Source: Dehalococcoidia bacterium | GTDB lineage: Bacteria; Chloroflexota; Dehalococcoidia; UBA2979 | Direction: 5' to 3' | Assembly (NCBI GenBank): GCA_965219085.1 | Contig: OZ244720.1 | Location: 1,995,429-2,059,428, forward strand | DNA: 64,000 bases | In this document: piece after piece, positions 7,311-42,844 of the stretch | Position numbering within the stretch: the stretch's first letter is position 1 | Layout of the letters: each line of letters opens with the position of its first letter | Program-made: the position numbers and the translations under genes | Notes under the pieces: model-generated | The model's database searches: none | The model's input: the letters and a program-made list of their open reading frames with translations, nothing else | Told to the model about the DNA's origin: nothing

Positions 7311-7518
7311 GCCGCCGGGCGCGCTCGCCTGAAGGGGATGCGGGACTCGATATCGAGGGTCCGAAGGCGTTCCCCGAGCATCGCCGCCCGGACGTCATCG
7401 ACGCGTAGCCTCCTGCGCGAGAGTCGGCACGACGACGGCACAGCCTGTTACCGCAGCGAAAGATTTGCGAAACGCGAACGTCACGCCCCTGACACCCGTC
7501 GGTACCCCACGCGTTCAA

Positions 7519-7600
7519 GCTAGCGCCTGCTTGCCCCGCCTGAGCACAGGCGGGTGCACGGCGCGATAACTGCCGGGGAAACCGAGGCCTCCTCGGCCTT
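7519..7600 (+). promoter_or_regulatory. structured leader upstream of the ABC binding-protein gene; weak resemblance to a guanidine-I (ykkC) riboswitch 3' half, followed by a short hairpin
   Basis: CUAG..., then ACGGCGCGAUAACUGCCGGGGAAAC (compare ykkC ACGGCGGGAUAAAAGCCCGGGAGA), then hairpin CCGAGG-CCU-CCUCGG; the 5' conserved blocks are not recognisable. Confidence 0.15.
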
Positions 7601-8336
7601 CTTGTAGGTGGCGCAACGCGCCCCGCCCGCAACGCGGAACCGGAGGAGAGACCCTTGATGTTGACCTGGCCCCACCTGGCGGACCTGCGATTGGTGGCGA
7701 TGCTCGTCGCCGCCGTCGCGCTCTTCGCGGTCGCATGCGGCGGCGACGACGACGACACCACGCCGGCTCCGATCAGGTGATCGTGCTGGTGAAAGACAAC
7801 TCCACCGGCAACGACCAGATCATCGCCACCGCGGACATCCAGTCGATCGAGGATCTCGGCGGCACGACGATCGGCGTTGAGGTCGGCGTTGTCGACCACT
7901 TCCTCCTGCTGCTCGGCCTCGAGTCCGTCGGGCTCACCGCCGCCGACGTCAACATCGTCAACCTCGAGACCGGCGCGGGGGTGCCGCATTCGCGTCGGGC
8001 CAGCTCGACGCGGTCGGCGTCTTCGCACCGTTTACGGTGCAGGCGCTGATCCGCGAGGGTTCGCACACGCTCTTCACGTCCGCCCTGTTCCCCGGCGCGA
8101 TTCCCGACCAACTCGTGCTCTCGCGCGAGATCGTCGACTCGCGACCGGAGGACGTGCAGAAGATCATCGAGGCCTGGTTCAAGACCCTCGAATGCATCGA
8201 GGCGAATCCGGCGGACGCGGTCGCCATCATGGCCAGGCGCGCGGGCGTCACGGCCGAGGAATACGCAGAGTACGACTGACCTGACCCCTTGAAACGGGAC
8301 CACCGTTGATGAGAGTCCTTTGGCCCATGAAAGTGG

Positions 8337-8633
8337 GTGGAGGAGGACATCACGGTGAAACGACGCAGGCACACGCCTGAGCAGATCGTGCGCAAGCTGC
8401 GCGAGGTGGAGCGGCTGCTCGGCGAAGGGCAGACGATCGCCGAGGCGGCGAAGCGGGTCGAGGTCTCGGAGCAGACCTACCACCGCTGGCGCAACCAGTA
8501 CGGCGGGATGAAGGCCGACGACGCCAAACGGCTGCGCGAGCTGGAGCGCGAGAACGTCCGGCTGAAGCGGATCGTCGCCGACAAGGAACTCGAGATCGAC
8601 GCGCTCAAGGAGATCGCCCGGGGAAACTGGTAA
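8337..8633 (+). CDS. IS3-family transposase OrfA (HTH)
   Basis: 98 aa, ..RRRHTPEQIVRKLREVERLLGEGQTIAEAAKRVEVSEQTYHRWRNQYGG.. with leucine-zipper tail, typical of IS3 OrfA. Confidence 0.9.
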   Translation: MEEDITVKRRRHTPEQIVRKLREVERLLGEGQTIAEAAKRVEVSEQTYHRWRNQYGGMKADDAKRLRELERENVRLKRIVADKELEIDALKEIARGNW

Positions 8634-8662
8634 GCCCGTCGCGCCGGCGCGAGGCAGTCTGC

Positions 8663-9487
8663 ATGTTGCAGGACCGCCTCGAGTTGTCGGAACGGCGGGC
8701 ATGCCGGGTCACCGGCCAGCACCGCTCCACACAGCGCCGCCTCCCGGTGCGCGGCCGCGGCGACGACGCGCTGCGCGCGGAACTCCACGCCTTCTCGCGT
8801 GGCCACCCCCGCTGGGGGTACCGCCGGGCCTGGGCGACCTTACGCGAGGAGGGCTGGGGCGTGAATCGCAAGCGGGTGCAACGGCTCTGGCGTGAGGAAG
8901 GGCTGCGCGTCCCGGTGAAACGGCGCAAGCGTCAGCGCCTGGGGGACTCGGCGGTGCCCGCCGCCAGGCTGCGCGCTGAGCGGCCGAACCACGTCTGGGC
9001 GCTGGACTTCCAGTTCGACCAGACCGCGGACGGGCGGGTCCTGAAGCTGCTCAACATCGTCGACGAGCACACACGGGAGGCGCTGGCGATCGTGGCCGCC
9101 AGGCGCATCAACGCCGACGCCACGGCCTCAACGCTCGACGGGATCGTCGCCCGGCGCGGGACGGCGCCTGGGTACATCCGTTGCGACAATGGGCCCGAGC
9201 TCACGGCCAACGCGCTGCGCGACTGGTGCCGGTTCAGCGGTACGGGCAGCAGCTACATCGAGCCCGGTGCGCCGTGGGAGAACCCGTACGTCGAGTCGTT
9301 CAACGGCCGGTTGCGCGACGAGTTCCTGGCGGTCGAGCAGTTCGACAGCCTGCTCGAGGCGCAGGTGCTGCTCGAGGACTGGCGGATCGAGTACAACACG
9401 AAGCGCCCGCATAGCAGCCTGGGCTGGCTCGCCCCGGCTGCCTACGCCGAGCGCTGGGAGACTCAGCTACACGCTGGACTCTCATAA
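8663..9487 (+). CDS. IS3-family transposase OrfB (DDE integrase core, rve)
   Basis: 274 aa with the integrase catalytic core (..HVWALDFQF.., ..YIRCDNGPELT.., ..SFNGRLRDEFL..); probably expressed as an OrfAB fusion by -1 frameshifting. Confidence 0.9.
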   Translation: MLQDRLELSERRACRVTGQHRSTQRRLPVRGRGDDALRAELHAFSRGHPRWGYRRAWATLREEGWGVNRKRVQRLWREEGLRVPVKRRKRQRLGDSAVPAARLRAERPNHVWALDFQFDQTADGRVLKLLNIVDEHTREALAIVAARRINADATASTLDGIVARRGTAPGYIRCDNGPELTANALRDWCRFSGTGSSYIEPGAPWENPYVESFNGRLRDEFLAVEQFDSLLEAQVLLEDWRIEYNTKRPHSSLGWLAPAAYAERWETQLHAGLS

Positions 9488-9799
9488 GCGGTGGACTCGC
9501 GAAGGGGGTCCGGTCACGACGCCGGCGCCACGATCTTCACGGCTGCGCAGAACCTCACGGCGTTCGAGGCCGGCGACGACTTCACGAGCCTGCAGTTCGT
9601 GGCCGACCAGATCGTCCCGTTCCTGATCGATGCCGAGTTCATCGAGGCGGAGCCGGATCTGTCGGGGCTCTTCGATCCGTCGTTCGTCGAGACCTACGTG
9701 TCGGCGAACTAACGGGTCTCGCAGGAAGTGGCTAAACCCGAATACACCGATCGAGGCTTGAGGGGGCGGGATGCCGGTATGCCGGAGAGTTCGGCAGGT

Positions 9800-11350
9800 G
9801 TGTCGGTGTTCGCCGGGCGGTGCCGGAGCGAGCAGGCGCAGCTCGGGGGCGCTGAGGGCGCGGGCGCAAGGCGTGCGCGGGCATGCTGGCGCGAGCCTCG
9901 GAGGGGGGCCGGCGCTGTGAGCGGTCGTCAGGCCGGGAGCGGTAACGCCCGTAGTCGCGCGAGCGCGGCTGCCAGCTGCCCGGCCCAGGGCCAGCGCCTG
10001 GGGAGGTGCAGGGTCCAGCGCCGGGCCGAGTGGGTGAGCCGTCCGGCGAGGGCGAAATAGCGCCGCCTGAGCGTCCTGGTGGTGACGATTCCCTCGCCGA
10101 GCCCGAGCCGTGCCGTCCAGCGGGCGAGGTTGTGCGCGATCACCTGCACCGCGAGCCATGCCGCGTTCGCGGCGAAGCGGCCCGAGGGGAGATGGTTGAG
10201 CCCGACGCCGTACTTGAGATCGCGGATCGCGTTCTCGATCTCGGCGTGGCGACGATGGTCGGTCTCGAGCTCCATCATCTCCCCCGAGCGGTCGGTGATG
10301 AAGGCGTGGTAGCTGTACGTCGCGAAGAGCGCCAGCTGTGAGCCGGGCGCCGGCTTCACGCGCCGCACGATGAGCCGCACCGCGCTGGCGTCCCTCGTGT
10401 GCCGGAACGGGGTGTAGGTCGTCTCGGCGACATCGGCGCCGCCCGGCAGCCAGTACGGGATCGGCGTCCAGTCCTCTTGCGGTATCGCCTCGATCAGCCT
10501 ACGCACGCTCGGCTGCTGGCGGATCGTGACCGAGAAGCGGACATCCTGCTTGCGGCAGACGGCGACGACCGCGTGGTTGTAGAAGCCGCTGTCGGCGCGC
10601 ACCGTGAGCTGCCCGCTCGCCCCGGCGTCGCGGACCCGCGCCACCGTCTCACGCAGGAAGTGTGCGGCGCCGCGGGCGGTGTTGGCGCGGCCCTCGCGCA
10701 GCCGCGCCATCAGCACGTCACCCGTCCCGGCCGCAACGGCGAGCAGCGGGTGGTAGCCGCGCGCGCCCGTGTAGCCGTGGTGCCGGGCGCCCTCCTTCGC
10801 CAAGCCGTAGGTCTCGCAGATCGTCGAGTCGAGGTCGATCGTGAACGGCGCGTCGCCGGGTCCCGCCCCGGCCGCCCAGCCGCGAGCGAGCAACTCGCGG
10901 CTGACGCGGTCGAGCTGGCGGACGTGGCCCCAGCGGAAGCTGCGCAGGAACGTGCCCAGGGTGGACGGCGCCTTGACCGTGCAAGCCAGCACGCTCGCCG
11001 TCCCGCCGGCGCGCAACGCATCGGCGTCGTCGATGCAGTCACCGCCCGCGAGCGCCGAGGCGATGAGGGTCAGCAGCTTGTCGCCGGCGTTCGCCCGGCC
11101 CGGCGCGTCACCGAGGTCGACGCAGCTGTCGGCGAGCTCTTGCAGACCGAGATGCTGGGCGAGCGTGGCCGGGAGCAGCAGGCCCGCGTGGTCCACGAGG
11201 CGGTCGTCATCGAAGGCGATGTCTATCCGGTCGGGGTCGCTCGTTGGTAGCATCGAATGGGTGCTCCCTGTGGCTGTGACGTGATTCGGCAAAACCCATT
11301 GTCCCAGCTACAGCGGAGCACCCAACCGCAGCCCCTAGCGCGCTCTTCTT
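9800..11350 (-). mobile_element. second insertion sequence, IS1380/IS4-like (boundaries approximate)
   Basis: Contains a single 454-aa DDE transposase ORF between the binding-protein remnant and the permease gene; ends and target duplication could not be fixed by eye. Confidence 0.55.
9928..11292 (-). CDS. DDE transposase, IS1380-family-like
   Basis: 454 aa; size and organisation typical of IS1380/IS4-type transposases (..TIDLDSTICETYG.., ..HPLLAVAAGTGDVL..). Confidence 0.7.
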   Translation of the reverse strand: MPNHVTATGSTHSMLPTSDPDRIDIAFDDDRLVDHAGLLLPATLAQHLGLQELADSCVDLGDAPGRANAGDKLLTLIASALAGGDCIDDADALRAGGTASVLACTVKAPSTLGTFLRSFRWGHVRQLDRVSRELLARGWAAGAGPGDAPFTIDLDSTICETYGLAKEGARHHGYTGARGYHPLLAVAAGTGDVLMARLREGRANTARGAAHFLRETVARVRDAGASGQLTVRADSGFYNHAVVAVCRKQDVRFSVTIRQQPSVRRLIEAIPQEDWTPIPYWLPGGADVAETTYTPFRHTRDASAVRLIVRRVKPAPGSQLALFATYSYHAFITDRSGEMMELETDHRRHAEIENAIRDLKYGVGLNHLPSGRFAANAAWLAVQVIAHNLARWTARLGLGEGIVTTRTLRRRYFALAGRLTHSARRWTLHLPRRWPWAGQLAAALARLRALPLPA

Positions 11351-11478
11351 CGGTGGATCAGGGCTAAAGCAGGCAAGGGGGCGGCCATGCGCGACAGCAC
11401 CGGCGCGCCCCAGGCGGAGTTGCCGCCCGTCGCCTGTGGACCACGCCGCCACGGGCCGGCACGCCCGGCGGCCGGCTC

Positions 11479-12267
11479 ATGGTCGGCCGCCGGCCGAGCT
11501 GGTTCTGGCGCATCCGCGAGGACATCTCGCCCACGCTCCGGATCGCGCTCGCATCGGCCTCGGTGACGGCGCCGCTGGCGGTCTGGATCATCCTCGTCGC
11601 GAACCACGCGGTGAACCCGATCTTCCTGCCGAATCCGCTCGACGTGCTGGGCTCGCTGCGAGACCTGTTTACCGAGGGGCTGCCGCTCTCGGACGCTCGA
11701 GCCAGCCTCCAGCGCGTCGCGATCGGCTTCGGGATCTCGCTGCCACTCGGCCTCGCGATGGGGACGTTCAAGAGCATGGAGGCGCTGTTCGAGCCGGTGA
11801 TCGGCCTGTTGCGCTACATGCCCGCGCCGGCATTCGTGCCGCTGCTCATCATCTGGTTCGGCTTCGCCGAGACGCCGAAGGTCGCGCTGATCCTCATCGG
11901 CACGATGTTCTTCAACACCCTGATGATCGCGAACGTCGTCTGGCAGGTACCGACCGATCTGATCCGGGTGGCGCTGACGCTGGGCGCGAGCAACGTGGCG
12001 GTCTTCACGAAGGTGATCTTCCCGCACAGCGTGCCCGGTGCGATCGATGCGGCGCGTGTGAACCTCGCCGCGGCGTGGAACCTGATCGTCGTGGCCGAGC
12101 TCTTCGCCGCCGACGAAGGCCTCGGTTACCGCATCGTCCGCTCCCAGAAGTTCCTGCACATCGACACCATCTTCGCGGTGCTGATCGTGATCGGGATTCT
12201 CGGCCTCACCAGCGATCTGCTGCTTCGCACCGCGCGCAACCGCCTCGCGCCGTGGTCACAGGAGTAG
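11479..12267 (+). CDS. ABC transporter permease, NitT/TauT family (SsuC-like)
   Basis: 262 aa, six transmembrane segments, EAA-like loop (..GASNVAVFTKVIFPHSVPG..). Confidence 0.85.
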   Translation: MVGRRPSWFWRIREDISPTLRIALASASVTAPLAVWIILVANHAVNPIFLPNPLDVLGSLRDLFTEGLPLSDARASLQRVAIGFGISLPLGLAMGTFKSMEALFEPVIGLLRYMPAPAFVPLLIIWFGFAETPKVALILIGTMFFNTLMIANVVWQVPTDLIRVALTLGASNVAVFTKVIFPHSVPGAIDAARVNLAAAWNLIVVAELFAADEGLGYRIVRSQKFLHIDTIFAVLIVIGILGLTSDLLLRTARNRLAPWSQE

Positions 12268-12273
12268 ACGGCC

Positions 12274-13056
12274 ATGGTCGCTCGGCACACAGCGTTGCAG
12301 ACCCGAGGGCTCACCAAGCCGTTCCCCGGCCGCGGCGGCGAATCGACCGTCGCGCTCGAGGACATCGACCTCCACGTGGAACGGGGCGAGTTCGTATGCC
12401 TCGACGGCGCCTCCGGCTGCGGCAAGTCCACGCTGCTGAATATCATCGCCGGTCTGATTGAGCCCTCCGAGGGCGAGGCGCTGCTCGATGGCCTGCCGAT
12501 TGGCGGACCCAGCCCGAACCGCGGGCTGGTCTCGCAGGGCTACTCGCTGCTTCCCTGGCGGACCGTCGCCAAGAACGTCGCGTTCGGCCTCGAGCTCTCG
12601 GGCTGGAGCAAGGCGGAGCGAGCGGAGCGCGTCGACTACCTCCTTGGGGTCATGCAACTCACGAAATGGGCCGACTCCCGGCCCAGCGCGCTCTCGGGCG
12701 GGATGCGGCAGCGTGTCGCCATCGCGCGTTCGCTCGCCCCCCAACCCGAGGTGCTGCTGCTGGACGAGCCGTTCGGCGCGCTGGACGCGCACACGCGGAT
12801 GCTGATGCAGGAGTTCCTGCCGGACATCTGGCGCGAGACCGGCACCACCGTGCTGATGGTCACGCACGATGTCGAAGAGGCATTGTTCCTCGCGCAGCGG
12901 ATCTACGTGCTGTCCTCGCACCCCGGTCGCGTGAAGCGCGAGATCGTGCTGCCCTTCGGCGATAACCGTTCGCAGCAGTTGCGACGGCAAGAGGACTTCC
13001 TGGACCTGCGCGACGAGGTGCATGCGTTGCTCTTCGCCGAGGTCTCCGAGGTCTAG
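12274..13056 (+). CDS. ABC transporter ATP-binding protein, NitT/TauT family (SsuB/TauB-like)
   Basis: Walker A GASGCGKST, signature LSGGMRQRVAIARSL, Walker B LLLDEPFGALD. Confidence 0.9.
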   Translation: MVARHTALQTRGLTKPFPGRGGESTVALEDIDLHVERGEFVCLDGASGCGKSTLLNIIAGLIEPSEGEALLDGLPIGGPSPNRGLVSQGYSLLPWRTVAKNVAFGLELSGWSKAERAERVDYLLGVMQLTKWADSRPSALSGGMRQRVAIARSLAPQPEVLLLDEPFGALDAHTRMLMQEFLPDIWRETGTTVLMVTHDVEEALFLAQRIYVLSSHPGRVKREIVLPFGDNRSQQLRRQEDFLDLRDEVHALLFAEVSEV

Positions 13057-13138
13057 GCGTCATGCCCGGTATCGAACCCCGCTGAAAGGACCCTCGTGAC
13101 CCAGCCGCCGTTCCCACTCGCACGAATACCGCGGTGAA

Positions 13139-14251
13139 GTGCCGCTCCACGACCATTACGGCCCCGAGGCGCGCTACGCTGCCGAGGCCGAGGCGCTGAT
13201 TCCGCAGACCGCCTGCGAGCGCGAGATCGCGTGCGGCCTCGAGCTCGGCCCGCAGGGCGCCGGCTCGATCGTCGATCGGTCGATCCCGACGTTCAGCCGC
13301 GGCGAGCTGCCCCACTTCGCGGGTATCAACACCTTCCTCAAGGCCCCCTACCGCGAGGATGTGCGCGAGTGCCGCGCGTACGACGTATCGATCCTCGGCG
13401 CCCCGTACGACGGCGGCGCCACGTACCGCCCGGGCACGCGTTTCGGCCCCCAGGGTATCCGCAAGATCTCCGCGCTCTACGGTCCGTACTCGTTCGAACT
13501 CGGCGTCGACCTGCGCGAGTCGATCACGATCTGCGACGTCGGCGACATCTTCACCATCCCGGCGAACATCGAGAAGACGTTCGACCAGATCAGCAAGGCC
13601 GTCGGTCACGTCTACGCGAGCGGCTCCTTCCCGATCGTGCCCGGCGGCGATCACTCGATCGGCTACCCGACGGTGCGCGCCGTCGCGGAGCACCTCGACG
13701 GCGGCAACCTCGGGATCATCCACTTCGACCGCCACGTTGACACGCAGGAGACCGACCTCGACGAGCGGATGCACACCACACCCTGGTTCCAGGCGACGGA
13801 CATCCCGAACGTGCCGGCGAAGAACCTCGTCCAGATCGGCATCGGCGGCTGGCAGGCGCCGCGCCCCGGCGTGAAGGTCGGCCGCGAGCGCGGCACGACG
13901 ATCATGACCGTCACCGACTGCGTCGAGATGGGCATCGAGGACGCCGCCGCGCGCGCCCTTGAGGTGGCATGGGACGGCGCCGACGCCGTCTGGCTCTCCT
14001 TCGATGTCGACTGCCTGGACGCGGCCTTCGTGCCCGGCACGGGCTGGCCCGAGCCGGGAGGCTTCCTGCCTCGCGAGGTGCTGAAGTTCATCCAGCTGAT
14101 CTCGGAGCGCCCGCTCGCCGGGATGGAGGTTGTGGAGTGCTCGCCCCCCTACGACACCGCCGAGATCACCGCACTGATCGCCACGCGCGTGATCTGCGAC
14201 ACGCTGGGCCGCCAGGTGCGCGCGGGGCACCTGCCGCGGCGGGGGGCGTAG
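13139..14251 (+). CDS. arginase/agmatinase-family ureohydrolase with an N-terminal extension of about 60 aa (candidate guanidine hydrolase; alternatively agmatinase or guanidinobutyrase)
   Basis: 370 aa; Mn/Ni-binding motifs [15 protein letters not shown] and SFDVDCLD; GTG start; lies directly between the NitT/TauT transporter genes and ureA. Confidence 0.75.
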
Positions 14252-14255
14252 CGCC

Positions 14256-14556
14256 ATGCGACTGACACCTCGCGAGCAGGATGCGCTGATGATCTACGTC
14301 GCCGCCGACCTCGCCCGGAAGCGGCGCGCGCGGCCTGCGCCTCAACTACCCCGAGTCCGTGGCGCTGATCAGCGAGGCCATGATGGAGGCCGCACGCGAC
14401 GGCACGGCGGTCACCGAGGCCGCCGTGCGGGGCGCCCAGGTGCTCGGCATCGAGGACGTGATGGAAGGCATCCCCGAGATGGTCACCCTCGTACAGGTGG
14501 AGGCGACGTTCCCGGACGGAACGAAGCTCGTCTCCTGCCACGATCCGATCCGCTGA
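14256..14556 (+). pseudogene. ureA: urease gamma subunit (ureA) with a 1-bp frameshift
   Basis: [25 protein letters not shown] then frame switch to [43 protein letters not shown]; the indel lies near 14335 in GCGGCGCGCGCGG. Confidence 0.75.
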
Positions 14557-14936
14557 TGGCGGACCACGCACGCTACCTCGTCGAGGACGGCGACCTCGAG
14601 ATCAACGCCGGACGCCCGACGGTCACGCTGGCGGTCGCGAACTCCGGCGACCGCCCGATCCAGGTGGGATCGCACGCGCACTTCTTCGAGGTGAACCGCG
14701 CACTCCGCCTCGACCGCGCCGCCGCATTCGGGATGCGACTCGACATTCCCGCCGGCACGGCGGTTCGGTTCGAGCCGGGTCAGCAGCAGACCGTCACGCT
14801 CGTCGCCTTCGGCGGCGCACGACGGGCGCACGGCATGAACGCGCTTGTCGAAGGCTCCACCGACAGCGCCGACGTGCGCGCCGCCGCGCTCGCCCGCCTC
14901 GAGGAGCGCGGATTCAGCTCGGAGGCCCCGCGATGA
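14555..14936 (+). CDS. ureB: urease beta subunit
   Basis: ATG overlaps the ureA stop (TGATG); [54 protein letters not shown].. Confidence 0.85.
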
Positions 14937-16650
14937 GCCGCATCTCCCGCGAGCGCTACGCCGCGCTCTACGGCCCCACGACCGGCGACCGCTTCCGCCC
15001 CGCCGACACGCAGCTGATCTGGCGCGTCGAGCATGACCACGCCGTACTCGGCGAGGAGGCCGTGTTCGGCGGGGGCAAGACGATCCGCGATGGCATGGCG
15101 CAGGCGCCACGCATGACCGCCGCGGGCGGCAGTCCCGACCTCGTGATCACGAGTGCGCTGATCCTCGATCCCGTGCTCGGCGTGATCAAGGGCGACATCG
15201 TCGTCAAGGATGGGCGGATCGCGGCCATCGGCAAGGCCGGAAAACCCCGACATCATGGACGGCGTCGACCCCGCGCTCGTGATCGGGCCGGGTACCGAGG
15301 TCATCGCCGGCGAGCACATGATCGCGACGCCCGGCGGCGTCGACAGCCACATCCACATGATCGCGCCGCAGCAGGCGTGGGCCGCCCTCTCGAACGGCAT
15401 CACGACGATGCTCGGCGGCGCCGCCGGCCCCGCCGACGGCACGCGCGCCACCACCACCACGCCCGGCCCGTGGAACATCGCGCGCATGCTCGAGGCCGCC
15501 GAGACCATGCCCGTGAACTGGGGCCTCTTCGCGAAGGCGAACGCCTCGGACGTGGCGGCGATCGCCGAGCAGGTCGCGGCCTGCGCGCTCAAGGTCCACG
15601 AGGACTGGGGCTCGTCCCCCGCCGTGATCGACGCCGCGCTCCGCGCCGCGGATGAGTACGACGTGCAGCTGGCGATCCACACCGACACCCTCAACGAGAG
15701 GGGCTTCGTCGAGGACACCATCGCCGCGATCGCGGGCCGCACGATCCACACGTTCCACACCGAGGGCGCGGGCGGCGGTCACGCTCCGGACATCCTCCGC
15801 CTCGCCGGCGAGCCGAACGTGCTCCCTTTGAGCACCAACCCGACTCGCCCCTACACGGTGAACACGCTGGCCGAGCACATGGACATGCTCATGGTCTGCC
15901 ATCACCTCAACCCGCAGGTCCCCGAGGACGTCGCCTTCGCCGACAGCCGCATCCGCCCCGAGACGATGGCCGCCGAGGATGTCGTCCACGACGTGGGCGT
16001 ACTGAGCATGTACTCGTCGGACTCGCAGGCGATGGGCCGCGCCGGCGAGAACTTCACGCGCCTGATCCAGACCGCCGACAAGATGAAGCAGGTGCGCGGC
16101 CCGCTGCCCGAGGACGCCGCGGGCGACGACAACGCCCGCGTCCTCCGCTACATCGCCAAGCTCACCATCAACCCCGCCCGCACCCACGGCATCGCGCACG
16201 AGGTTGGCAGCCTCGAGACCGGCAAGCTCGCCGACATCGTGCTGTGGCCGACGCAGTTCTTCGGTGCGAAGCCCGCGCTCGTCGTCAAGGGCGGCATGAT
16301 CGCGTGGTTCGTGATGGGCGAGCCGAACGCCTCGATCCCGACGGTCGAGCCGGTCATCTACCGCCCGATGTTCGGCGCACACCCCTCCGTGATCCCGGCG
16401 ACCAGCGTCACCTTCCTCAGCTAGGCCACGCTGGATCGCGGCGTGGCCGGGGCGCTCGGCCTGCGGTGTCGCATCGCCGTCAGCAGGAACAATCGTGCGC
16501 TCACCAAGGCCGACATGCTCCGCAATGACGCCCTCCGGGCGATCGATGTCGATCCCGAGACCTACGAGGTGCGCGACGATGGCGAGGTCGTCACCTCGCC
16601 CCCCGCAGAGACCCTCGCGCTGTCCCAGCGCTACTTCCCTGGTCTAGCGA
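14933..16650 (+). pseudogene. ureC: urease alpha subunit (ureC), disrupted: +1 indel near 15236, in-frame TAG at about 16425, and an indel at the ureC/ureF junction
   Basis: N-terminus [21 protein letters not shown]..; GGAAAACCCC gives ..AGKPRHH.. instead of ..AGNPDIMDG..; conserved ..TFLSQAA.. reads TFLS*AT (TAG); C-terminus ..SQRYF then runs into ureF because of CCCT in place of CCT. Confidence 0.8.
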
Positions 16651-17353
16651 TGCCCGCCTCGACCCGCTCGCTGATCGCGCTGCTCCAACTCGCGGATTCC
16701 TCGTTCCCGATGGGCGCGTTCGCCCACTCCTACGGGCTGGAGCAGCTCGTCCGCGACGGCATGGTGCGGGACGCCGCATCGCTCGAGGCCTTCGTCGACT
16801 CGATCGTCTCGCTCCAGCTCGCGCCCGCCGAGGCCCGCGCCGCCGCCTCGGCGTGCCACGCCGCCGCGCTGGGCGGCCTCGAGACTGGTGCTCGCGATCG
16901 ACCACTGCCTCCACGTCACGCGCGCCCCTCGTGAGCTGCGCGACGCGGCGGTCGCCGCCGGCCGCCGGCTGCTCGAGGAGGTCGCCGCGCACGCCGCCGG
17001 CCGCCGCGGCCTTGTGCCCGCGTTCCGCGACGCCGTGCTCGAAGACCGCGCGCCCGGCGCCCACGCCGTCGCGCTCGGCGTGGCGGGCGCGGCCTTCGGC
17101 GTGCCGCCCGAGGACGTTGCCGCCGCCCCGCTCTTCAGCACGGCGAACGCGCTCGTGCAGGCGGCGATGCGCCTGCTCCCGATCTCGCACCGCGACGCGC
17201 AGTCCGTGCTGCACCGCGTTCGCGACGCGATCGCCGACGCCGCGCGCGCGGCCGCCGCGGACGGAACCGCTCGCGTTCACATCGTTCCACCCACTCCGGG
17301 AGATCGCGTCGATGCGCCACGCGAGCGCACCGGTCCGCTTCTTCGCGTCGTAA
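16648..17353 (+). pseudogene. ureF: urease accessory protein UreF with two frameshifts
   Basis: MPASTRSLIALLQLADSSFPMGAFAHSYGLE.. (frame 0), then ..LVLAIDHCLHVTRAPRELRD..FSTANALVQAAMRLLP.. (frame +1), then ..EPLAFTSFHPLREIASMRHASAPVRFFAS* (frame +2, TAA at 17351). Confidence 0.7.
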
Positions 17354-17371
17354 CGCAAGCAATCGGGGCAC

Positions 17372-17397
17372 GCAGCCGAGGCATGCAGCCGAGGCAT
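17372..17397 (+). repeat. perfect 13-bp tandem duplication (GCAGCCGAGGCAT x2) in the ureF-ureG junction
   Basis: Read directly from the sequence, immediately 5' of the ureG ATG. Confidence 0.85.
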
Positions 17398-17409
17398 CGA
17401 GGTCAGACC

Positions 17410-18039
17410 ATGAGCCAGCCCATCACCATCGGCGTCGGCGGCCCCGTCGGCTCCGGCACGTCGCTGCTCGTCGAGCGCATCGTCCCGCCGATGATCGAAC
17501 GTGGCTTCTCGCCGGGCGTCGTGGCCAACGACGTCGTCACCGAGGAGGACGCACTGATCATCCGCCGCGGCCTCGATGGCATCCTCGACCCGGCGCGCAT
17601 CGTCGGCGTCGCGACCGGCGCCTGTCCGCATCAGGCGGTGCGCGAGGACCCATCGCTCAATCTCGCCGCGATCGAGCGTCTCGCGGAGGAGCACCCGGAC
17701 ATCGACCTCGTGTTCATCGAGAGCGGCGGCGACAACCTCACGCTGACCTTCAGCGCGCTGCTGGCGCGGCTCTCGATCTACGTGATGGATGTCGCCGGCG
17801 GCGACAAGACCCCTCGCAAGCGGGGGGCGGGCATGATCCAGTCGGACCTGCTGGTCATCAACAAGACCGATCTCGCGCCATACGTCGGGGTCGACGTCAT
17901 GGAGCGCGACGCCGCGACGTACCGCAGCGGCCCGCTGCTGTTCACCGACTGCCGCCACGGCAGCGGTCTCGTCGAGGTCGCCGACTGGCTTGCCACTTCG
18001 ATCAGCGCGCTCGCCGCTCCGGCTGCCGCCCCGGCGTGA
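17410..18039 (+). CDS. ureG: urease accessory GTPase
   Basis: MSQPITIGVGGPVGSGTSLL (P-loop), ..ESGGDNL.., ..INKTDL..; 209 aa, intact. Confidence 0.9.
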   Translation: MSQPITIGVGGPVGSGTSLLVERIVPPMIERGFSPGVVANDVVTEEDALIIRRGLDGILDPARIVGVATGACPHQAVREDPSLNLAAIERLAEEHPDIDLVFIESGGDNLTLTFSALLARLSIYVMDVAGGDKTPRKRGAGMIQSDLLVINKTDLAPYVGVDVMERDAATYRSGPLLFTDCRHGSGLVEVADWLATSISALAAPAAAPA

Positions 18040-18049
18040 CGCGCGCCTG

Positions 18050-18843
18050 ATGCCCGTCCGCAGCCGGCTGGTCGCGCGCTTCGCTCCGTCGCCGGGTGGA
18101 GCGCCCCGCGCGGTGCGCGCCGACGTTGCGGCGACCACCCCGCTCGAGCTGCGCGGCCCCTTCCCCGCCTCGATCCCCGGTACGCCCCGCGCTACCTCTT
18201 GCTCAACGTCACCGCCGGCATCCTCGACGGCGACGACTACGCGATCGAGGTCTGCGCGGCGCCGGGCACGCGAGTCGGCGTGGAGCCCACATTCGCCGCG
18301 AAGGTGTTCCGCTCACGCGGCGGCGGCGCGGCCTTGCGCACGCGCATCGAGGTCATGCCGGGCGCGGAGCTCCGCTACGACTCGGGCCTGCTGATCCCGC
18401 ATGCGGGAGCGGTCCTCCGTCAGCAAACCGAGATCGTGCTGCACGAATCGGCGCGGGCAAGCTGGAGCGAGTCGCTGTCGTTCGGCCGCCTCTCGCACGA
18501 CGAGCGGTTCCAGTTCAAGCGGATCGAGAACGAGCTGCGAGTCGTCGATCCCGCGGGGCGTGTGCGCTACGAGCGCCGCTCCGACCTCGTCCCGCAACGC
18601 GACCGTGCCGCCCTCGAATCAGCCGTCGGCTGCTTCGGCGCGGTCGGCTCGATGGTCCTGCTGGGCAGGCAGCCCGGCGAGGAGCCCGAACTCCCCGATC
18701 TCTCCGCGCTGCCCGGCGTCTACGCCGGTGCGACGACACTTCCCGACGACCTCGGCACGATCGTCCACGTGCTCGCTGAGTGGCCCGAGCAGATCGAGGC
18801 GGTATTCAGCCTCGCGCGAGCGGCGCGGTGCGCGCAGGTATGA
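18050..18843 (+). pseudogene. ureD: urease accessory protein UreD/UreH with a 1-bp frameshift near 18190
   Basis: MPVRSRLVARFAPSPGGAPRAVRADVAATTPLELRGPFPASIPGTPR then frame switch to YLLLNVTAGILDGDDYAIEV..RIENELRVVDPAGRVRYERR.. Confidence 0.7.
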
Positions 18844-19194
18844 GCGTCGCTGCCCCTCGAGGACCGGGTAGTGACTCCATCAGGAGACGGCGCTGCGGCC
18901 GCGGGCCGAGACTCACAACTCGGACACTGGTATCCGGCCCTCTGGAACCCTTCTGGACCCGGCCGCCATCCAACACCGCCCTGCATGGGGTAGATGTCCC
19001 GCGGCAGCAGGTCTCCAGGCAGAGGATGACACCGGCGCGATTATCTCCCCGCCGCGCTTGCTTCCAGTTGCTACTGATCCAGGCGGGCGGATGCTGTTCA
19101 GCGCTGGATGAGTTGCTGAGCCGATCGGCCACGCCCCAGGCGATTTCGCTACCGAGGCTCGCGGTTCCGCCTTGGGCCGTGCGAGGATCGCCGT

Positions 19195-20086: not shown

Positions 20087-20880
20087 ATGGCCAGCTCGTA
20101 CCGACCCCAGCGCGGCTTTGCCGACGCATCGGAACGCGATCGCGCCGCCGGGGTCCCCCCGGCGGCCCGACGCCTCGTTCCGCCCATCTACGACCTCTCC
20201 CATGTCGGGCTCGAGGACGTCGACCCCTGGATCCCGCGCCCCGAAGACCGCGCGGCCGGCCGCCCATCGGTCGCTGCCGCGATCTGGCCGTGGGGACTGC
20301 GCGGGCTCGCCGACACCCTCGAGGTGGTCGCGCTCGCGCTGCTCATGTTCATCCTCGTGCGCGGAGTCGCGCAGAACTTCGTTGTCGACGGCGGCTCGAT
20401 GGAGCCCACGTTCAGCAGCGGCCAGATGCTGATCGTCAACAAGCTGGCCTACTCCGAGTTCGACCTTGCCTGGCTGCCGGCCGTCGGCTCCGACGATTGG
20501 CGTCCCTTCGGCGCGCTCGAGATCGGTGACGTGATCGTCTTCGAGTTCCCCGCACGGCCAGGACCGCGACTTCATCAAGCGTGTCGTGGCGCTGCCCGGC
20601 CAGACCGTCGAGGTGCGCGACGCGTTGGTGCTGGTCGACGGGGTCGCGCTGGTGGAGCCGTACCTCAGCGACCTCGCCCGTTACGCGTACGGCCCGGAGA
20701 CCGTGCCGCCCGGCCACGTCTTCGTACTGGGCGACGCGCGCAACAACTCCTACGACTCGCACTCCTGGGGGATGCTCGACCAGGCGTTCATCATCGGCCG
20801 CGTCGAGCTGCGCTACTGGCCGGTGGACCGCGCCGGCATGGTGGGCGGCGAGACGCCCTCGACCGAGGGGGGCGGGCAGG
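20087..20880 (+). pseudogene. lepB: signal peptidase I (LepB) with a +1 indel near 20560 (or a sequencing error)
   Basis: ..DGGSMEPTFSSGQMLIVNKLAY.. then ..IVFEFP, frame switch, ..DRDFIKRVVALPGQTVEVRDALVLVDGV..GDARNNSYDSHSWG..RYWPVDRAGMV; the site is TTCCCCGCACGGCC. Confidence 0.7.
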
Positions 20881-20886
20881 GAGACG

Positions 20887-21484
20887 ATGACCGCCGTGAA
20901 CGACACGCCGAACCCGTCCGTGCTCGATGCCGTGCGCGAGACCGGCGCGCTCCTCGAGGGCCACTTCCAGCTCGCCTCCGGCGTGCATTCGGACCGCTAC
21001 CTGGAGAAGTTCAACCTGCTCCAGTGGCCCGGCCATACCGAGGACGCCTGCCGGGCGCTCGCCGAGGCCGGCGCGCCCGCTCGCACCGAGCACCATCGTC
21101 GGCCCGACCACGGGCGGCGTGATCATCGCGTACGAGGTGGCGCGCCAGCTCGGCCTGCGCGGGATCATCGCCGAACGCAACGCGGACGGCCCCGGACGCC
21201 GTATCCAGCGCGACTTCCGCCTCGAGTCCGGCGAGCGGGTGCTGGTCGTCGACGATGTGCTGACGAGTGGCGGGTCGGTGTTTCGCGACACGATCGAGGC
21301 GGTCCGCATCGCCGGCGGCGATCCGATCGCCGTCGGCGTGCTCGTCGACCGCTCGGCAGGCCGCGTCGCGTTCGAAGGACTACCCCTGTACGCCTCGATG
21401 GTGCTCGACCTCGACACGTACCAGCCGGACGACTGCCCGCTGTGCCGCGACGGCCACCTCACCGTGCCGCTGACAGTGACGTAG
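20887..21484 (+). pseudogene. orotate phosphoribosyltransferase-like protein (PyrE family, C-terminal CPLC motif) with a frameshift near 21075
   Basis: MTAVNDTPNPSVLDAVRETGALLEGHFQLASGVHSDRYLEKFNLLQWPGH.. then frame switch to ..STIVGPTTGGVIIAYEVARQLGLRGIIAERN..VLVVDDVLTSGGS.. Confidence 0.65.
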
Positions 21485-22301: not shown

Positions 22302-22471
22302 GGGACCGAGGGGAACCCGGCCCCGATGGCGTCAAGTATGGTGCGCGCGGCAAGCCATCACAACTCTGACGCGCACGCGAGCATGCGCACGCTGGCGGAC
22401 GGGGGACATCCCGCCGCGCCCCGCGGATCCCGGTACCCTAGCCTCCGCACACCTCGAGGGAGGCATGCGCC

Positions 22472-23663
22472 GTGGAGTGGTGGCCGGTCGCGGGCGGCGA
22501 GACGTGGGCGTGGGCGTGGCGCGCCTACCCCGGTGTCTGGCTCTTCATCGCAGCGCTCGGCGCCGCCTACGTACTGCTCCTGCGAGCCGAGTCCCGGGGC
22601 GCGCGGCGGCGCGGCGAAGCGGGCGTCGAGGCCTGGCGCATCGGCCTGTTCGCCGGCGGGCTCGTGCTGCTGTGGGTCTCGCTCGACTGGCCGCTGGGCG
22701 CCATGGCCGCTGGCTACCTCGCGACCGCGAACGCCGCGCAGGACCTGCTCGTCACGCTCGGCGCCGCGCCGCTGATGCTGCTCGGCCTGCCGCCGTCGAG
22801 GGACCGGCAGCGGCAGCCCGCGAGCTTACTGGTGCGCGCGCGAGGGATGCTCGGCCAGCCGATCATCGCGGCAGCGGTGTTCGGTGTGGTGCTGATGGTC
22901 ACGCACCTGCCGGACGTCGTCGACGCGCTGCGGCCGCACGCGGTGGGGTCGTTCGCGATCACATCGGCGTGGCTGCTCTCGGCGGTCGTGCTGTGGACGC
23001 CGCTGGCGGGGCCGCTCGCGGGGCGGCACCGCCTGCCGTACTTCGGCGCGCTCCTGTACCTCGATCGTGCCGTTCGTCTTCCCGAAGATCGCCGGCGCGT
23101 TCTTCGTCTTCGCCGACAGGCCGCTGTACGAGGTCTATACCTCCGCCCCTCGCGTCTTCGACGACGTCTCGGCTATGCAGGACCAGCACGTCGCGGGCTT
23201 CGTGCTGTGGGTGATCGGCAGCCTCATGGTCGTCGCCGCGCTCGGCGCGCTGTTCCGCCGCTGGTACACCGAGGACCGTCGCATGGCCGCGCCGCCGAGC
23301 CTCGAGATCCCCGCCGACCCGCGTGCCGTCGACCTGCTGTTCGAGGTGCAAGGTGGCTGGGCCGCGCTCGAGCAGCTCGTCGCGAGCGTTGAGCAGGCGC
23401 TGCCCCGCGACCGCACCGGCACCGCGCTGGCGTTCGGCTACCGCGCGCGCGCCGAGGATGCAGCGGGTGACGACGATGTCCCACCGACGCAGGTCATACT
23501 CGAACTGCACATCGCGCTCGGGGCGGCCGTGGAGGCGGGCGTCGCGCAGCGCATCGAGGCGGACTACGGGGACTACCTGGGTCGCCAGCCGCGCCGCCGC
23601 CGTGATGCGATCGCGCGGGCGCTGGCGTTCCGCGTCGTCGGCTACGGCTCGCGCGTGACATAA
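22472..23663 (+). pseudogene. cytochrome c oxidase assembly factor CtaG-like polytopic membrane protein with a +1 indel near 23060
   Basis: Caa3-CtaG-like transmembrane profile; ..FGALLYLD then frame switch to IVPFVFPKIAGAFFVFADRPLYEVY.. Confidence 0.55.
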
Positions 23664-24361: not shown

Positions 24362-25633
24362 ATGACGATCTCGACCGGGCGAAGCTCGGCGCTCCCGACC
24401 ACCACGGCCGACGGGCGGCCGTTGCCGCTTGCCGGCGTACGCGTCGTGGACTTCACGTGGATCGTCGCCGGGCCGCAGGCGACGCGGATCCTCGCCGACC
24501 TCGGCGCCGACGTGATCCGGGTGGAGAACGAGAGCCACCTTGACTCCCTGCGGATGGGCGGGGGCCGCCCCGCGGACGAACGGGCCCGCCACAACAGCTC
24601 CGGGCTGTTCAACAACCTCAACCGCAACAAGCGCAGCATGACCGTCAATCTCTTCCACCCGCGCGGACGCGAACTCGTCGAGGAGCTCATCACGGGCGCC
24701 GACGTGGTCACGGAGAACTTCAGCCCCGGCGCCTTCGAGCGGATGGGCTTCGGCTGGGACCGCCTGCGTGAGCTCAACCCCAACATCATCTACATGTCGC
24801 TGTCCGGGTACGGACACTTCGGGCGCGACGCCTCGTTCGTGACGTGGGGGCCGACGGCACAGGCCATCTCCGGCCTCACGTACCTGTCCGGGCTGCCGGA
24901 CCAGCCGCCGGCCGGCTGGGGCTACTCCTACCTCGACCACTCGGCCGGCTACTACGGCGCGATCGGCTTGCTGCTCGCCCTGCGCAAGCGTGCGCGCGAG
25001 GGCGGCCCGCTGCGCGTCGACCTCTCGCAGGCCGAGACGGGCATGGTGATGACCGGCGCGCAGATGCTCGACGCGCAGGTGAACAACCGCCCCTCGCGTC
25101 GCTCCGGAAACTTGCTGCCGTACCCCGAGATCGCCCCGCACAACACCTACCGTTGCGCCGGCGACGACCGCTGGATCGCGCTCGCCGTCGAGACCGACGC
25201 CCACTGGGCCGCGCTCTGCGACGTGCTCGGCGCGGACGCGCTCGCCTCCGACCCACGCTTCGGCACGAACGGCGGCCGCGTCGAGGCCCGCGAGGAGCTG
25301 GACGCGGCCATCGACGCACTGACGCGGGGCTGGGACACGCGCGAGCTGATGTACGCGCTGCAGGCGCGCGGCGTCCCCGCGGGCGTGGCCCAGACCACCC
25401 AGGACAAGATGGAGCTCGACCCGCAGCTCGCCGCGCGCGGCTTCTACCCGCGCGCCGACCACCCCATCCTCGGCGAACACCGCTACGAGGCGCTCCCGTT
25501 CCTCCTCGAACGCTTCGGCTGGCAGGTGCGCCGCGGCGCGCCGCTGCTCAGCGAGCACAGCGACGAGGTGCTCGCCGAACTCGGCTGCGACGAGGACGAG
25601 ATCGCGCGGCTGCACGAGGAGTTGGCGATATGA
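24362..25633 (+). CDS. family-III CoA-transferase (CaiB/BaiF), first of a tandem pair
   Basis: ..LAGVRVVDFTWIVAGPQATRILADLGADVIRVE.. N-motif; C-terminal ..LGEH..EVLAELG.. Confidence 0.85.
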   Translation: MTISTGRSSALPTTTADGRPLPLAGVRVVDFTWIVAGPQATRILADLGADVIRVENESHLDSLRMGGGRPADERARHNSSGLFNNLNRNKRSMTVNLFHPRGRELVEELITGADVVTENFSPGAFERMGFGWDRLRELNPNIIYMSLSGYGHFGRDASFVTWGPTAQAISGLTYLSGLPDQPPAGWGYSYLDHSAGYYGAIGLLLALRKRAREGGPLRVDLSQAETGMVMTGAQMLDAQVNNRPSRRSGNLLPYPEIAPHNTYRCAGDDRWIALAVETDAHWAALCDVLGADALASDPRFGTNGGRVEAREELDAAIDALTRGWDTRELMYALQARGVPAGVAQTTQDKMELDPQLAARGFYPRADHPILGEHRYEALPFLLERFGWQVRRGAPLLSEHSDEVLAELGCDEDEIARLHEELAI

Positions 25634-26889
25634 GTACCGGCGCCGAAGGACTCCGCATCATCGAGATCGGTGACCTGGGCGAGGTCGCCGGGAAGCTGCT
25701 GGCCGACGCCGGCGCCGACGTGATCCGCGTCGAGCCGCCCGCCGGCGCGCCCGCGCGGCGTATTGGGCCGTTCCCGGGCGACCGCCCGGACACGAACAGC
25801 TCGCTGCACTGGGCGCACTTCAACACGAGCAAGCGCGGCATCACCCTCGACGTCCATACCGCCGACGGCCTCGCGCTGTGGTGGAAGCTCGTCGAGGGCG
25901 CCGATGCAGTCATCGACGCCGCCGGGCACGGCGTGCTCGATGCCGCGGGCGCCGGCTGGGAAGAGGCTGCGCGTCGCTGCGACGGCAAGCCGCTCGTGTG
26001 GTGCTCCGTGACGCCGTTCGGCCGCGAAGGGCCGTGGTCGGACTGGGCCTCGAACGACCTCGTGCAGGTCGCCCTCGGCGGGCCGATGATGAGCACCGGC
26101 TACGACGACCACGAGCTGCCGCCGATCCGCGGTGGGTACGACCACTCGCTGTGGATGGCCGGCGAATACGCGACGATCGCCATCCTGGGCGCGACCGCGG
26201 GCTTCGAGGCCGGACTCGCCGACGGACCGGAGCTCGCCGACCTCTCGATCCACGAGTGCGTGAGCTGCACCGTCGAGGGGGCGTTCCCGAACTGGGAGTA
26301 CGACGGCCGGCTGGTGCAGCGCCAGACCGGCCGGCACTCCTCGCCCGACCGCACACCCGAGTGGCAGTTCCCGAGCGCCGACGGGCAGTTCATGAACGTC
26401 ATCGGCGGCGGGATGCCTCGCTCGGAGCAGGGGCTGGCCGACGTGCTCGACTGGATGGAGTCGCACGGCGCGGTCGAGGACCTGCGCGACCCGAAGTACC
26501 GCGACGCGATCCACTCGCCGCAGATGCCACCGAGCCCGGAGCGCCGCCACTTCTCGGAGGTGATCGAGCGCTTCATCGCCTCGCTCGACGCGCAGGACCT
26601 CTACCGGGGCGGGCAGGGCCTGCACCAGCCGTGGGCCGTGGTCCGCGCGCCCGAGGACAACCTCGACGACCCGCACTGGGCCGACCGCGGCACGTTCGCG
26701 GAGGTCGAGGTGCCCGGCCACCCCGAGCCCGTGCGCGTGCCGACCGCGCCATACCGCTTCGAGGGCGTGACGCGCCAGGTGCGCCGTCGCGCGCCGCTGC
26801 TCGCCGAACATAACCACGAGGTCTACGTCGGTGAACTCGGCCTCGATGACGCCGATATCCTGCGGCTGGCGCAGATCGGCGTGATCTAG
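25630..26889 (+). CDS. family-III CoA-transferase (CaiB/BaiF), second of the tandem pair, translationally coupled (ATGA overlap)
   Basis: MSTGAEGLRIIEIGDLGEVAGKLLADAGADVIRVEPP..; the 681-aa ORF-track entry starting at 24844 is an upstream run-on in the same frame. Confidence 0.85.
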   Translation: MSTGAEGLRIIEIGDLGEVAGKLLADAGADVIRVEPPAGAPARRIGPFPGDRPDTNSSLHWAHFNTSKRGITLDVHTADGLALWWKLVEGADAVIDAAGHGVLDAAGAGWEEAARRCDGKPLVWCSVTPFGREGPWSDWASNDLVQVALGGPMMSTGYDDHELPPIRGGYDHSLWMAGEYATIAILGATAGFEAGLADGPELADLSIHECVSCTVEGAFPNWEYDGRLVQRQTGRHSSPDRTPEWQFPSADGQFMNVIGGGMPRSEQGLADVLDWMESHGAVEDLRDPKYRDAIHSPQMPPSPERRHFSEVIERFIASLDAQDLYRGGQGLHQPWAVVRAPEDNLDDPHWADRGTFAEVEVPGHPEPVRVPTAPYRFEGVTRQVRRRAPLLAEHNHEVYVGELGLDDADILRLAQIGVI

Positions 26890-26998
26890 CATTGACGGAA
26901 CGTATGGCGACGCAGGGACTTCGGACTCCCCTGTCGACTGAGAGCGACCGTCACTGCGCCCATACCGGCGGTGGCTCTGGCGCGGCTGTGCCGCGCCG

Positions 26999-28201
26999 TC
27001 AGTTCCTCGGCAGCCCGAGCCCGCGCGTCGCGATGATGTTGCGCTGGATCTCCGAGGTGCCCCCGGCGATGGTCTGCGGCACCGAGAACACGTACTCGCG
27101 CGTCGCCCGGGCCGCCATCGGCGCCCGCGGGTCGTCCTCGTCCCAGAGGTTCGAGTAGAGGCCGAACGCGCTCACGGCCGTGCGGGCGATGCGCTGCGTC
27201 AGCTCGGTGCCGAAGACCTTGCCCATCGAGGCCTCGTAGTTCGGGATGCGCCCCGCATCCTGCATCGAGGCGATCCGCAGGCAGAGGTTGTAGTGCACGT
27301 CGGCGGCGATCGCCGCGTCCGCGACGTCGCGGCGCAGCGCCGGCGAGCTCGCCACGCGCGAGCGGGCCCGGCCCTCGGCGCTCCCGAGGTAGTCGGCCAG
27401 CTCGCGCACGTCGCGCCTGACCGTCGCCGAGCCGGCGATCCCGGAGCGTTCGAAGTCGAGCGCCGTCGCGCCGACGTACCAGCCACGGTTCTCCTCGCCG
27501 ATACGGTTCTTGACCGGCACGCGCACGTCCTCGAAGAAGGTCTCGTTGAAGCCGTGCTCTCCGCCCATGTTGATGAGCGGCCGGAACTCCACCCCGGGGA
27601 GGTCGGTGGGGATCAGCAGCGCGCTGATCCCGCGGTGCTTGGGCGCTGCGGGGTCCGTCCGTACCGGCACCCAGAGGTAGTCGGCGAGGTGGCCGTTCGA
27701 GGTCCAGATCTTCTGACCGTTCACCACGTACTCGTCGCCGTCGCGCACTGCGCGCGTCTGCAGCGAGGCGAGGTCGGAGCCTGCGCCGGGCTCTGAGAGC
27801 CCGGAGTGCATCAGGTGTTCGCCGCTCACCATCCGTGGCAGGTGCTCGCGCTTCTGCTCCTCGGTGCCGACGAGGATGATCGTCGGGCCGTACTGCACCA
27901 CGCCCGGCCCGCCAACGGCAGGCGCGTGCGCCGTTGCCATCTCCTCGCGGAGGATCGTCTGCGCCCAGATGGAGAGGCCGGCGCCGCCGTACTCCTCCGG
28001 CCAGTGGGGCGCGAACCAGCTGCGCTCGGCGAGTGCGTCGGTCCAGTCCTGCGCCGCCTGGCGCGCCTCGGAATCGGGCGAGCGGCGGTCCTGCGCCCAG
28101 TTGCCGCCGGGCGTGCGGTAGCGCTCGGGAAGCTGCTCGTCGAGGAGCGCGCGCACCTCGGCGCGGAAGGCGGCCTGCTCGGGGCTGTCGCTCCAGTCCA
28201 T
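26999..28201 (-). CDS. acyl-CoA dehydrogenase
   Basis: 400 aa; ..YGGAGLS.., catalytic region ..YEASMGKVFGTELTQ.., C-terminus ..QRNIIATRGLGLPR. Confidence 0.85.
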   Translation of the reverse strand: MDWSDSPEQAAFRAEVRALLDEQLPERYRTPGGNWAQDRRSPDSEARQAAQDWTDALAERSWFAPHWPEEYGGAGLSIWAQTILREEMATAHAPAVGGPGVVQYGPTIILVGTEEQKREHLPRMVSGEHLMHSGLSEPGAGSDLASLQTRAVRDGDEYVVNGQKIWTSNGHLADYLWVPVRTDPAAPKHRGISALLIPTDLPGVEFRPLINMGGEHGFNETFFEDVRVPVKNRIGEENRGWYVGATALDFERSGIAGSATVRRDVRELADYLGSAEGRARSRVASSPALRRDVADAAIAADVHYNLCLRIASMQDAGRIPNYEASMGKVFGTELTQRIARTAVSAFGLYSNLWDEDDPRAPMAARATREYVFSVPQTIAGGTSEIQRNIIATRGLGLPRN

Positions 28202-28527
28202 CGCCCGACCTTAGCCCAAATCCACCGAAGGAGAGCGCGCGAGCACCTGCCACGCGTGTCCGGTAAGGCCTCAGTGAGAACCGCCGGTCTCGACGCCGCC
28301 AACGGTGCATCAGTGCGACGAGCGCGCCGAGCAACATGGGCCGTGGTCCCCGGCACAGTTCAACTCGCGCCTGTCACGCCCAGAGTGCGGACTCAGTTGC
28401 GGCCCGTCGCCACGGATTGGCACGGTCCTGCAATCAGCGGGCGGCGGCGATGGGGCTATGGGTCGCCGTTAGCGGCGTTTAGCCGCGGTGCCTTGCGGCG
28501 CGGGTGGCCGAAGCCCACACTGACGCC

Positions 28528-42832: not shown

Positions 42833-42844
42833 CGAGGAGCCTCG

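Follow-up and report, generated by a model that had tools for sequence, protein, structure and literature searches.

We found a six-gene urease operon with lesions in five of its six genes in a 64,000-nucleotide stretch of contig OZ244720.1 from a Dehalococcoidia bacterium (assembly GCA_965219085.1, forward-strand positions 1,995,429 to 2,059,428; G+C content 70%), which we refer to throughout as the window. Comparison with related sequences suggests that this operon is a genuine, recently decayed multi-hit pseudogene cluster, a reading to which we assign a probability of about 0.77. The lesions comprise six frameshifts, one nonsense codon, the loss of the Walker-A lysine of UreG, and two in-frame deletions of 6 nucleotides (nt), and only ureB carries none. 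All ten are derived and occur in the window alone, being absent from the 7 to 8 close relatives aligned at each site and from an outgroup at 82% identity, so the disabling changes arose relative to intact orthologues. The best-supported account is ordinary pseudogenization, a fresh instance of a well-known phenomenon that calls for no new mechanism.

Pfam profiles on the plus strand fall in the order Urease_gamma, Urease_beta, Urease_alpha/Amidohydro_1, UreF, cobW (UreG), and UreD, placing the gamma, beta, and alpha subunit genes in sequence and the accessory genes ureF, ureG, and ureD behind them, an order that the relatives share. No ureE was found inside the urease operon of the window or in those of the relatives examined. 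Several of the Pfam domains are divided among overlapping open reading frames (ORFs) of differing frames, and tblastn searches with ORFs from the nearest Dehalococcoidia and Chloroflexota metagenome-assembled genomes (MAGs) located frame changes in ureA, ureC, ureF (two), and ureD, together with an in-frame stop in ureC. With six frameshifts and one nonsense codon, the operon does not retain uninterrupted reading frames.

Placing each lesion exactly required relatives closer than the species-representative genomes, the nearest of which are only 73 to 76% identical at the nucleotide level (approximately 78 to 80% in the amino acids of UreC) and too far for base-level comparison; the UreC of the window is likewise 74 to 80% identical in amino acids to its eight closest Dehalococcoidia homologues (L001 to L008). 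A UreG protein search of ENA metagenome assemblies returned proteins that were 93 to 96% identical, and nine contigs (L081 to L086, L090, L092, and L093) with 94 to 96% DNA identity to window positions 11364 to 18853 served as close relatives. A scan of JGI metagenome contigs with a UreD fragment turned up no relative, and searches for exact matches to window proteins in public collections gave no record. Each lesion was positioned by multiple alignment with 7 to 8 of the close relatives and the outgroup L087 (82% DNA identity), and the latter was used to polarise substitutions. Intact operons of 100, 126, 572, 233, 211, and 264 codons (ureA, ureB, ureC, ureF, ureG, and ureD) are present in L082, L083, and L086, whose contigs are 3.5 Mb, 0.34 Mb, and 3.5 Mb long, respectively.

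An earlier, sequence-only reading of this DNA had described a urease operon broken by one nonsense codon and about six indels, and the alignment bears it out: all of these lesions exist, are derived, and are specific to the window. The TAG in ureC is, as it had proposed, a C-to-T nonsense change, and the indels it had placed near 14335, 15236, 16640, 16895, 17265, and 18190 could be assigned to 14323, 15241, 16637, 16884, 17258, and 18185, respectively (Table 1). The extra C near the end of ureC, read earlier as CCCT in place of CCT and as fusing ureC into ureF, puts the native TAG stop (16645 to 16647) out of frame, so that ureC would read into ureF (ATG at 16650). The gene ureB was correctly described as intact, with 1 nonsynonymous (N) and 9 synonymous (S) substitutions on the window branch; the corresponding counts for ureF are 6 N and 3 S. 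What that reading had missed are the in-frame 6-nt deletion in ureC, which removes two residues at a place where 80 of 80 homologues have residues, and two lesions in ureG. The UreC of the window also carries replacements of its own in conserved motifs, among them L23P (RLADT), G163A/T164A (GGGTGP), and S301L (LPSSTNP).

The ureG gene had been called intact, which holds for its reading frame but not for its product. The lysine of the Walker-A motif GxxxxGK[ST] has been lost, the window having GSGTS where all relatives have GSGKS or GSGKT, and an in-frame 6-nt deletion falls where 70 of 70 homologues are ungapped. The P-loop of the UreG GTPase is needed for urease maturation, and its substitution results in inactive urease (PMC3792862). 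Because K17T hits this P-loop, ureG is probably non-functional, even though its frame is open. Further replacements in the UreG of the window are P116A and Q138R.

Some candidate changes did not survive comparison with close relatives. UreG D120R and UreC G215A/G218A are common to the whole sister lineage and were rejected as window-specific, and a count of how often the window departs from residues that all 80 distant homologues share proved too high once the close relatives were included. The 13-bp tandem duplication that had been noted 5' of ureG is real and perfect, but it is not a lesion: it is intergenic and belongs to a 26-nt segment (17361 to 17386 in the alignment) that L090 has in a diverged form and the other sisters lack, and we regard it as a spacer polymorphism. 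As to how the amber codon arose, deamination of 5-methylcytosine at a Dcm-type site (CCAGG to CTAGG) fits the local context but found no support, as CCWGG occurs 159 times in the window against an expected 141 and shows no depletion. The CTAG tetranucleotide is strongly under-represented window-wide (21 observed against approximately 84 expected from shuffles), and one of the 21 copies arose through the amber mutation (16421 to 16424).

The pattern of substitution is consistent with relaxed purifying selection, as would be expected of pseudogenes. In ureC, ureF, and ureG taken together, the polarised substitutions number 22 N and 21 S on the window branch (omega of approximately 0.36) versus 4 N and 26 S on the sister branch (omega of approximately 0.05; Fisher p = 0.001), and the same comparison over all six ure genes gives p = 0.024. 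Frameshifts are also concentrated in the operon: its 4.6 kb contain six, whereas the remaining coding sequence of the window, approximately 46.6 kb, contains three, which makes the rate 20-fold higher in the operon (binomial p = 3e-5). Given this clustering and the types of lesion, sequencing error at a uniform rate is rejected as the only cause.

Multi-lesion decay in the window is concentrated in one locus (7.7 to 18.8 kb) that includes, upstream of the operon, genes for an NMT1-type ABC transporter and an arginase-family ureohydrolase. Compared with L086, where the arrangement is intact, the binding-protein gene of the transporter has an internal deletion of approximately 240 nt and frame switches at approximately 7762 and 7983, and it is truncated by an IS3-family insertion sequence (IS) recognised by Pfam domains HTH_Tnp_1, HTH_21, rve, and rve_3 and by inverted ends and a CGAC duplication when compared with the empty L086 site. 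A second IS lies in tandem with the first inside the same gene, and L081 has a 91% identical copy of it inserted in the ABC ATPase gene; because it occupies a different gene there, this DDE_Tnp_1_4 element is taken to be active in the lineage. Judging from their ends and target sites, both insertions represent bona fide transposition and not sequencing noise. The permease, ATPase, and arginase-family genes are open and show signs of relaxed constraint, namely a window-specific 12-nt deletion after 11740 in the permease gene, V44D adjoining Walker A in the ATPase, and 9 N and 10 S on the window branch versus 1 N and 12 S in the sisters for the arginase-family gene (p = 0.024).

Table 1. Features of the urease locus and of neighbouring genes with frameshifts (positions in the window)
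Feature	Position	Strand	Evidence or description
Six-gene urease operon, ureA-ureB-ureC-ureF-ureG-ureD	14256-18843	+	Pfam and tblastn with ORFs of relatives
ureA (urease gamma), pseudogene	14256..14556	+	Pfam Urease_gamma divided over two frames; tblastn
ureA, 2-nt (GC) deletion	after 14323, in GCGCGCGC run	+	frame +3 to +1; not in 7 relatives or outgroup
ureB (urease beta), intact ORF	14556..14936	+	126 codons as in relatives; Pfam Urease_beta 1.8e-42
ureC (urease alpha), pseudogene	14933..16647	+	Pfam, tblastn, alignment
ureC, extra A	15241, in GGAAAACCCC	+	GGAAAC to GGAAAAC; homopolymer extension
ureC, in-frame 6-nt deletion	after 15581	+	two residues lost just upstream of conserved LK(V)HEDWG motif
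ureC, CAG to TAG nonsense	16422-16424	+	CAG in all 8 relatives
ureC, extra C	16637	+	CCT to CCCT; homopolymer extension
ureF, pseudogene	16650..17353	+	Pfam UreF divided; tblastn frames +3 to +1 to +2
ureF, extra A	16884 (GAG-A-CTG)	+	no homopolymer extension; in no relative
ureF, extra C	17258 (GCCG-C-GG)	+	no homopolymer extension; in no relative
Perfect 13-bp tandem repeat, GCAGCCGAGGCAT x2, ureF-ureG spacer	17372-17397	+	alignment
ureG, open frame	17410..18039	+	Pfam cobW/UreG; alignment
ureG, Walker-A Lys codon AAG to ACG, K17T	17458-17460	+	GSGKS to GSGTS
ureG, in-frame 6-nt deletion	after 17895	+	70/70 homologues ungapped there
ureD, pseudogene	18050..18843	+	Pfam UreD, alignment
ureD, 1-nt C deletion (C5 to C4)	after 18185	+	frame +2 to +1
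NMT1-type substrate-binding-protein gene, 5' part, linked ABC transporter	7412..8276	+	Pfam NMT1 profile 76-244 only; tblastn; blastn vs L086
IS3-family IS in binding-protein gene	8277..9515	+	orfA HTH_Tnp_1, orfB rve; TG...CA inverted ends; CGAC target duplication
Binding-protein gene, 3' remnant between both IS	9516..9736	+	blastn vs L081/L083/L086, 95.5% identity
Second IS, DDE_Tnp_1_4 transposase of 454 amino acids, intact	9737..11363	-	CTAAA target duplication
ABC permease, ABC ATPase, and arginase-family ureohydrolase genes, open ORFs	11387..14251	+	Pfam, tblastn, alignment
Arginase-family gene, directly upstream of urease operon	13139-14251	+	Pfam
lepB-like S26 signal peptidase gene, one 1-nt insertion at ~20552	20186-20880		single Pfam domain split over two frames
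Phosphoribosyltransferase (pyrE-like) gene, one 1-nt insertion at ~21071	20881-21472		single Pfam domain split over two frames
ctaG, one 1-nt insertion at ~23062	22469-23657		single Pfam domain split over two frames

The chief alternative to decay is an artefact of assembly or consensus calling, in which errors would have gathered in an intact operon because this part of a long-read metagenome assembly had low coverage or was poorly polished, and the sequence-only reading had already allowed that some of the indels could be sequencing errors. To find further frameshifts over the whole window, we combined a codon-usage Viterbi path, Pfam searches of stitched translations, and alignment to the syntenic contig L091 (90% identity). 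Outside the decayed locus, only the lepB-like, phosphoribosyltransferase, and ctaG genes are affected, each by one 1-nt insertion, and from 23.1 to 64 kb neither the Viterbi path nor the L091 alignment detected a frameshift.

Several results from this search and from the operon itself weigh against decay. All three neighbouring genes are intact in L091 and evolve normally otherwise, with pairwise ratios of nonsynonymous to synonymous substitution rates (dN/dS) of 0.12 to 0.21, as in intact neighbours, and their lone insertions are probably assembly errors or very recent mutations. In all 11 of the 1-nt indels that separate the window from L091 between 19100 and 33950, it is the window that has the extra base (8 intergenic and 3 coding; sign test p = 0.001). 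Indels in bacteria are usually biased toward deletion, and this 11:0 excess, which reverses that bias, suggests insertion-type consensus errors. Of the six frameshifts in the operon, four are likewise 1-nt insertions; two of them, at 15241 and 16637, extend homopolymers, in line with the sequence-only reading, which had placed several indels in C or A homopolymers, but those at 16884 and 17258 do not. All frameshifts of the window lie within 7.7 to 23.1 kb, which could mean a locally poor consensus, the closest relatives themselves come from long-read style metagenome contigs, and the lesions of the window are read from an assembled consensus. Random mismatch or base-call errors would, like relaxed selection, raise N/S. 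Finally, in Tajima-type amino acid relative-rate tests against distant relatives, only UreC is modestly accelerated and the other proteins are not, and the decay would therefore be evolutionarily recent.

Given the lone insertions in the neighbouring genes and the technical-looking 11:0 bias, some consensus error is likely, and the operon's four 1-nt insertions may include artefacts. Removing such a minority of consensus errors would not restore function, however, and an artefact does not easily account for the remaining lesions, several of which are of kinds that consensus error rarely makes: the CAG-to-TAG and AAG-to-ACG (K17T) changes, the 2-nt and two 6-nt deletions, and, in the partner gene, the approximately 240-nt deletion and two IS flanked by target duplications. 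Nor does it easily explain the excess of nonsynonymous changes, the 20-fold excess of frameshifts, or the real and independent urease lesions carried by relatives, Illumina contigs included. We favour real decay of the whole operon because of the lysine-to-threonine change, the 6-nt deletions, the raised N/S, the IS-broken partner gene, and the lesions in sister strains, and we consider artefact as the general explanation to be unlikely.

Among related strains, a 4-nt deletion in ureF is common to L081, L084, and L085, which come from two samples and include one Illumina/SPAdes contig; L081 has in addition the IS in its ABC ATPase gene. In L090, ureC has a +1-nt frameshift and ureD has lost 54 nt; in L092, the binding-protein gene is split, ureC has an extra G, and ureG is frameshifted; and L093 has a glycine-to-alanine change in the Walker-A motif (P-loop) of UreG. 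At least five distinct lesion sets, that of the window included, thus occur among approximately ten sampled haplotypes. Because these related strains carry independent urease lesions, a recurrent biological loss of the urease locus in this lineage is plausible on comparative grounds. We would go further only tentatively, to the idea that strains living side by side in one uncultured Chloroflexota lineage are losing the transporter-arginase-urease locus repeatedly and by independent events. They would then be a natural population in which the loss of urea utilisation is ongoing and possibly selected, be it as "use it or lose it" or in the Black-Queen manner. The extra G in the ureC of L092 (in CAGGG, L092 position of approximately 9000, equivalent to window 16423) lies one base from the CAG-to-TAG change of the window, which may be coincidence or a local mutational hotspot.

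The co-occurrence of such alleles raises the question of whether the contig is a consensus of several strains with one or a few lesions each, in which case no cell would carry all ten. Sample ERZ28763718 does hold both an intact (L086) and a decayed (L092) allele, and strains that are intact or differ in their lesions likewise co-occur in ERZ25071132, where contig coverage is 7x, 23x, and 37x. None of the ten window lesions was seen in any recovered relative, however, and the window is 4 to 6% diverged from all of them, as a distinct lineage would be and a blend of the sampled ones would not; we judge a strain mixture to be very unlikely. Expression of the operon through recoding, by programmed frameshifting and amber read-through, hardly merits consideration: E. 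coli suppressor strains can suppress an amber codon in a urease accessory gene, but here the six shifts go both ways (+1, -1, and -2) and have no slippery motif in common, the Walker-A lysine of UreG is lost and conserved motifs carry deletions, and all relatives encode these proteins conventionally.

The surroundings of the locus have also been rearranged. Synteny with the sisters stops at approximately 18853, just past ureD, where the window goes on with an aldolase/lepB block that the relatives have at another place, and window positions 1 to 1075 match a permease gene that is located approximately 5.5 kb downstream of ureD in L086. Farther along, a 1575-nt segment (26890 to 28464) that is absent from L091 contains an intact acyl-CoA dehydrogenase gene (27002 to 28201, minus strand). 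The stretch from 52000 to 57000 has a lower G+C content (0.63 to 0.65 vs 0.70 to 0.72) and was scored as non-native by the codon model; it contains genes for an HATPase_c_3 protein (52392 to 53528) and a Fic/DOC-domain protein (56931 to 58139), as well as an unannotated ORF, and is possibly a horizontally acquired island. At least six family-III CoA-transferase paralogues occur in the 64 kb (24440 to 26886, 42840 to 47869, and 53715 to 54911), several of them head to tail and alongside enoyl-CoA hydratase- and thiolase-like genes.

If decay is genuine, the urease operon would best be seen as part of a larger urea-yielding nutrient locus, composed of the NMT1-type ABC transporter, the arginase-family ureohydrolase, and ureABC-FGD, that has been freed from selective constraint in this lineage. 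One essential component would have failed first, and the remaining genes would then have drifted neutrally, gathering substitutions and small indels. The first hit could have been in the transporter or in any ure gene. After neutral drift of this kind we infer that the cell would make no active urease. For annotation, this means that the ure genes should be flagged as pseudogenes, ureG included, which an automatic pipeline would call intact, and that metabolic reconstructions of Chloroflexota or Dehalococcoidia MAGs should not list this genome among the ureolytic ones. The lone insertions in lepB, the phosphoribosyltransferase gene, and ctaG meanwhile warn of possible insertion-type consensus errors in the contig. 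More broadly, the locus adds to the known cases of operon decay one that can be judged against a clear comparative baseline, and it hints that within an environmental population urease may be polymorphic for function.

Loss of urease through small lesions has well-known parallels. Urease-negative E. coli O157:H7 has a premature amber codon in ureD, and, as in the window, the in-frame amber codon stands in an otherwise complete ure cluster, there with a urease-negative phenotype. The E. coli lesion is single and lies in an accessory gene, whereas the amber codon of the window falls in the catalytic subunit and is one of many lesions. In Yersinia pestis, according to the account given in PMC9248902 (citing Sebbane et al. 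2001), urease is silenced by a single extra G in ureD. As described there, the Y. pestis case resembles ours in that the operon is intact in close relatives, a small frameshifting indel affects an accessory gene, and the gene loss is lineage-specific. It differs in resting on one reversible homopolymer lesion, whereas the window has about ten lesions spread over five of six genes, structural subunits included, and reversion is therefore impossible; the organism, moreover, is an uncultured environmental Chloroflexota bacterium. The decay outlined for Staphylococcus saccharolyticus in PMC6423177 is similar in kind, with frameshifts, nonsense codons, and IS piling up in dispensable metabolic operons, but that account concerns decay of a genome, whereas the multi-lesion decay of the window is concentrated in a single locus.

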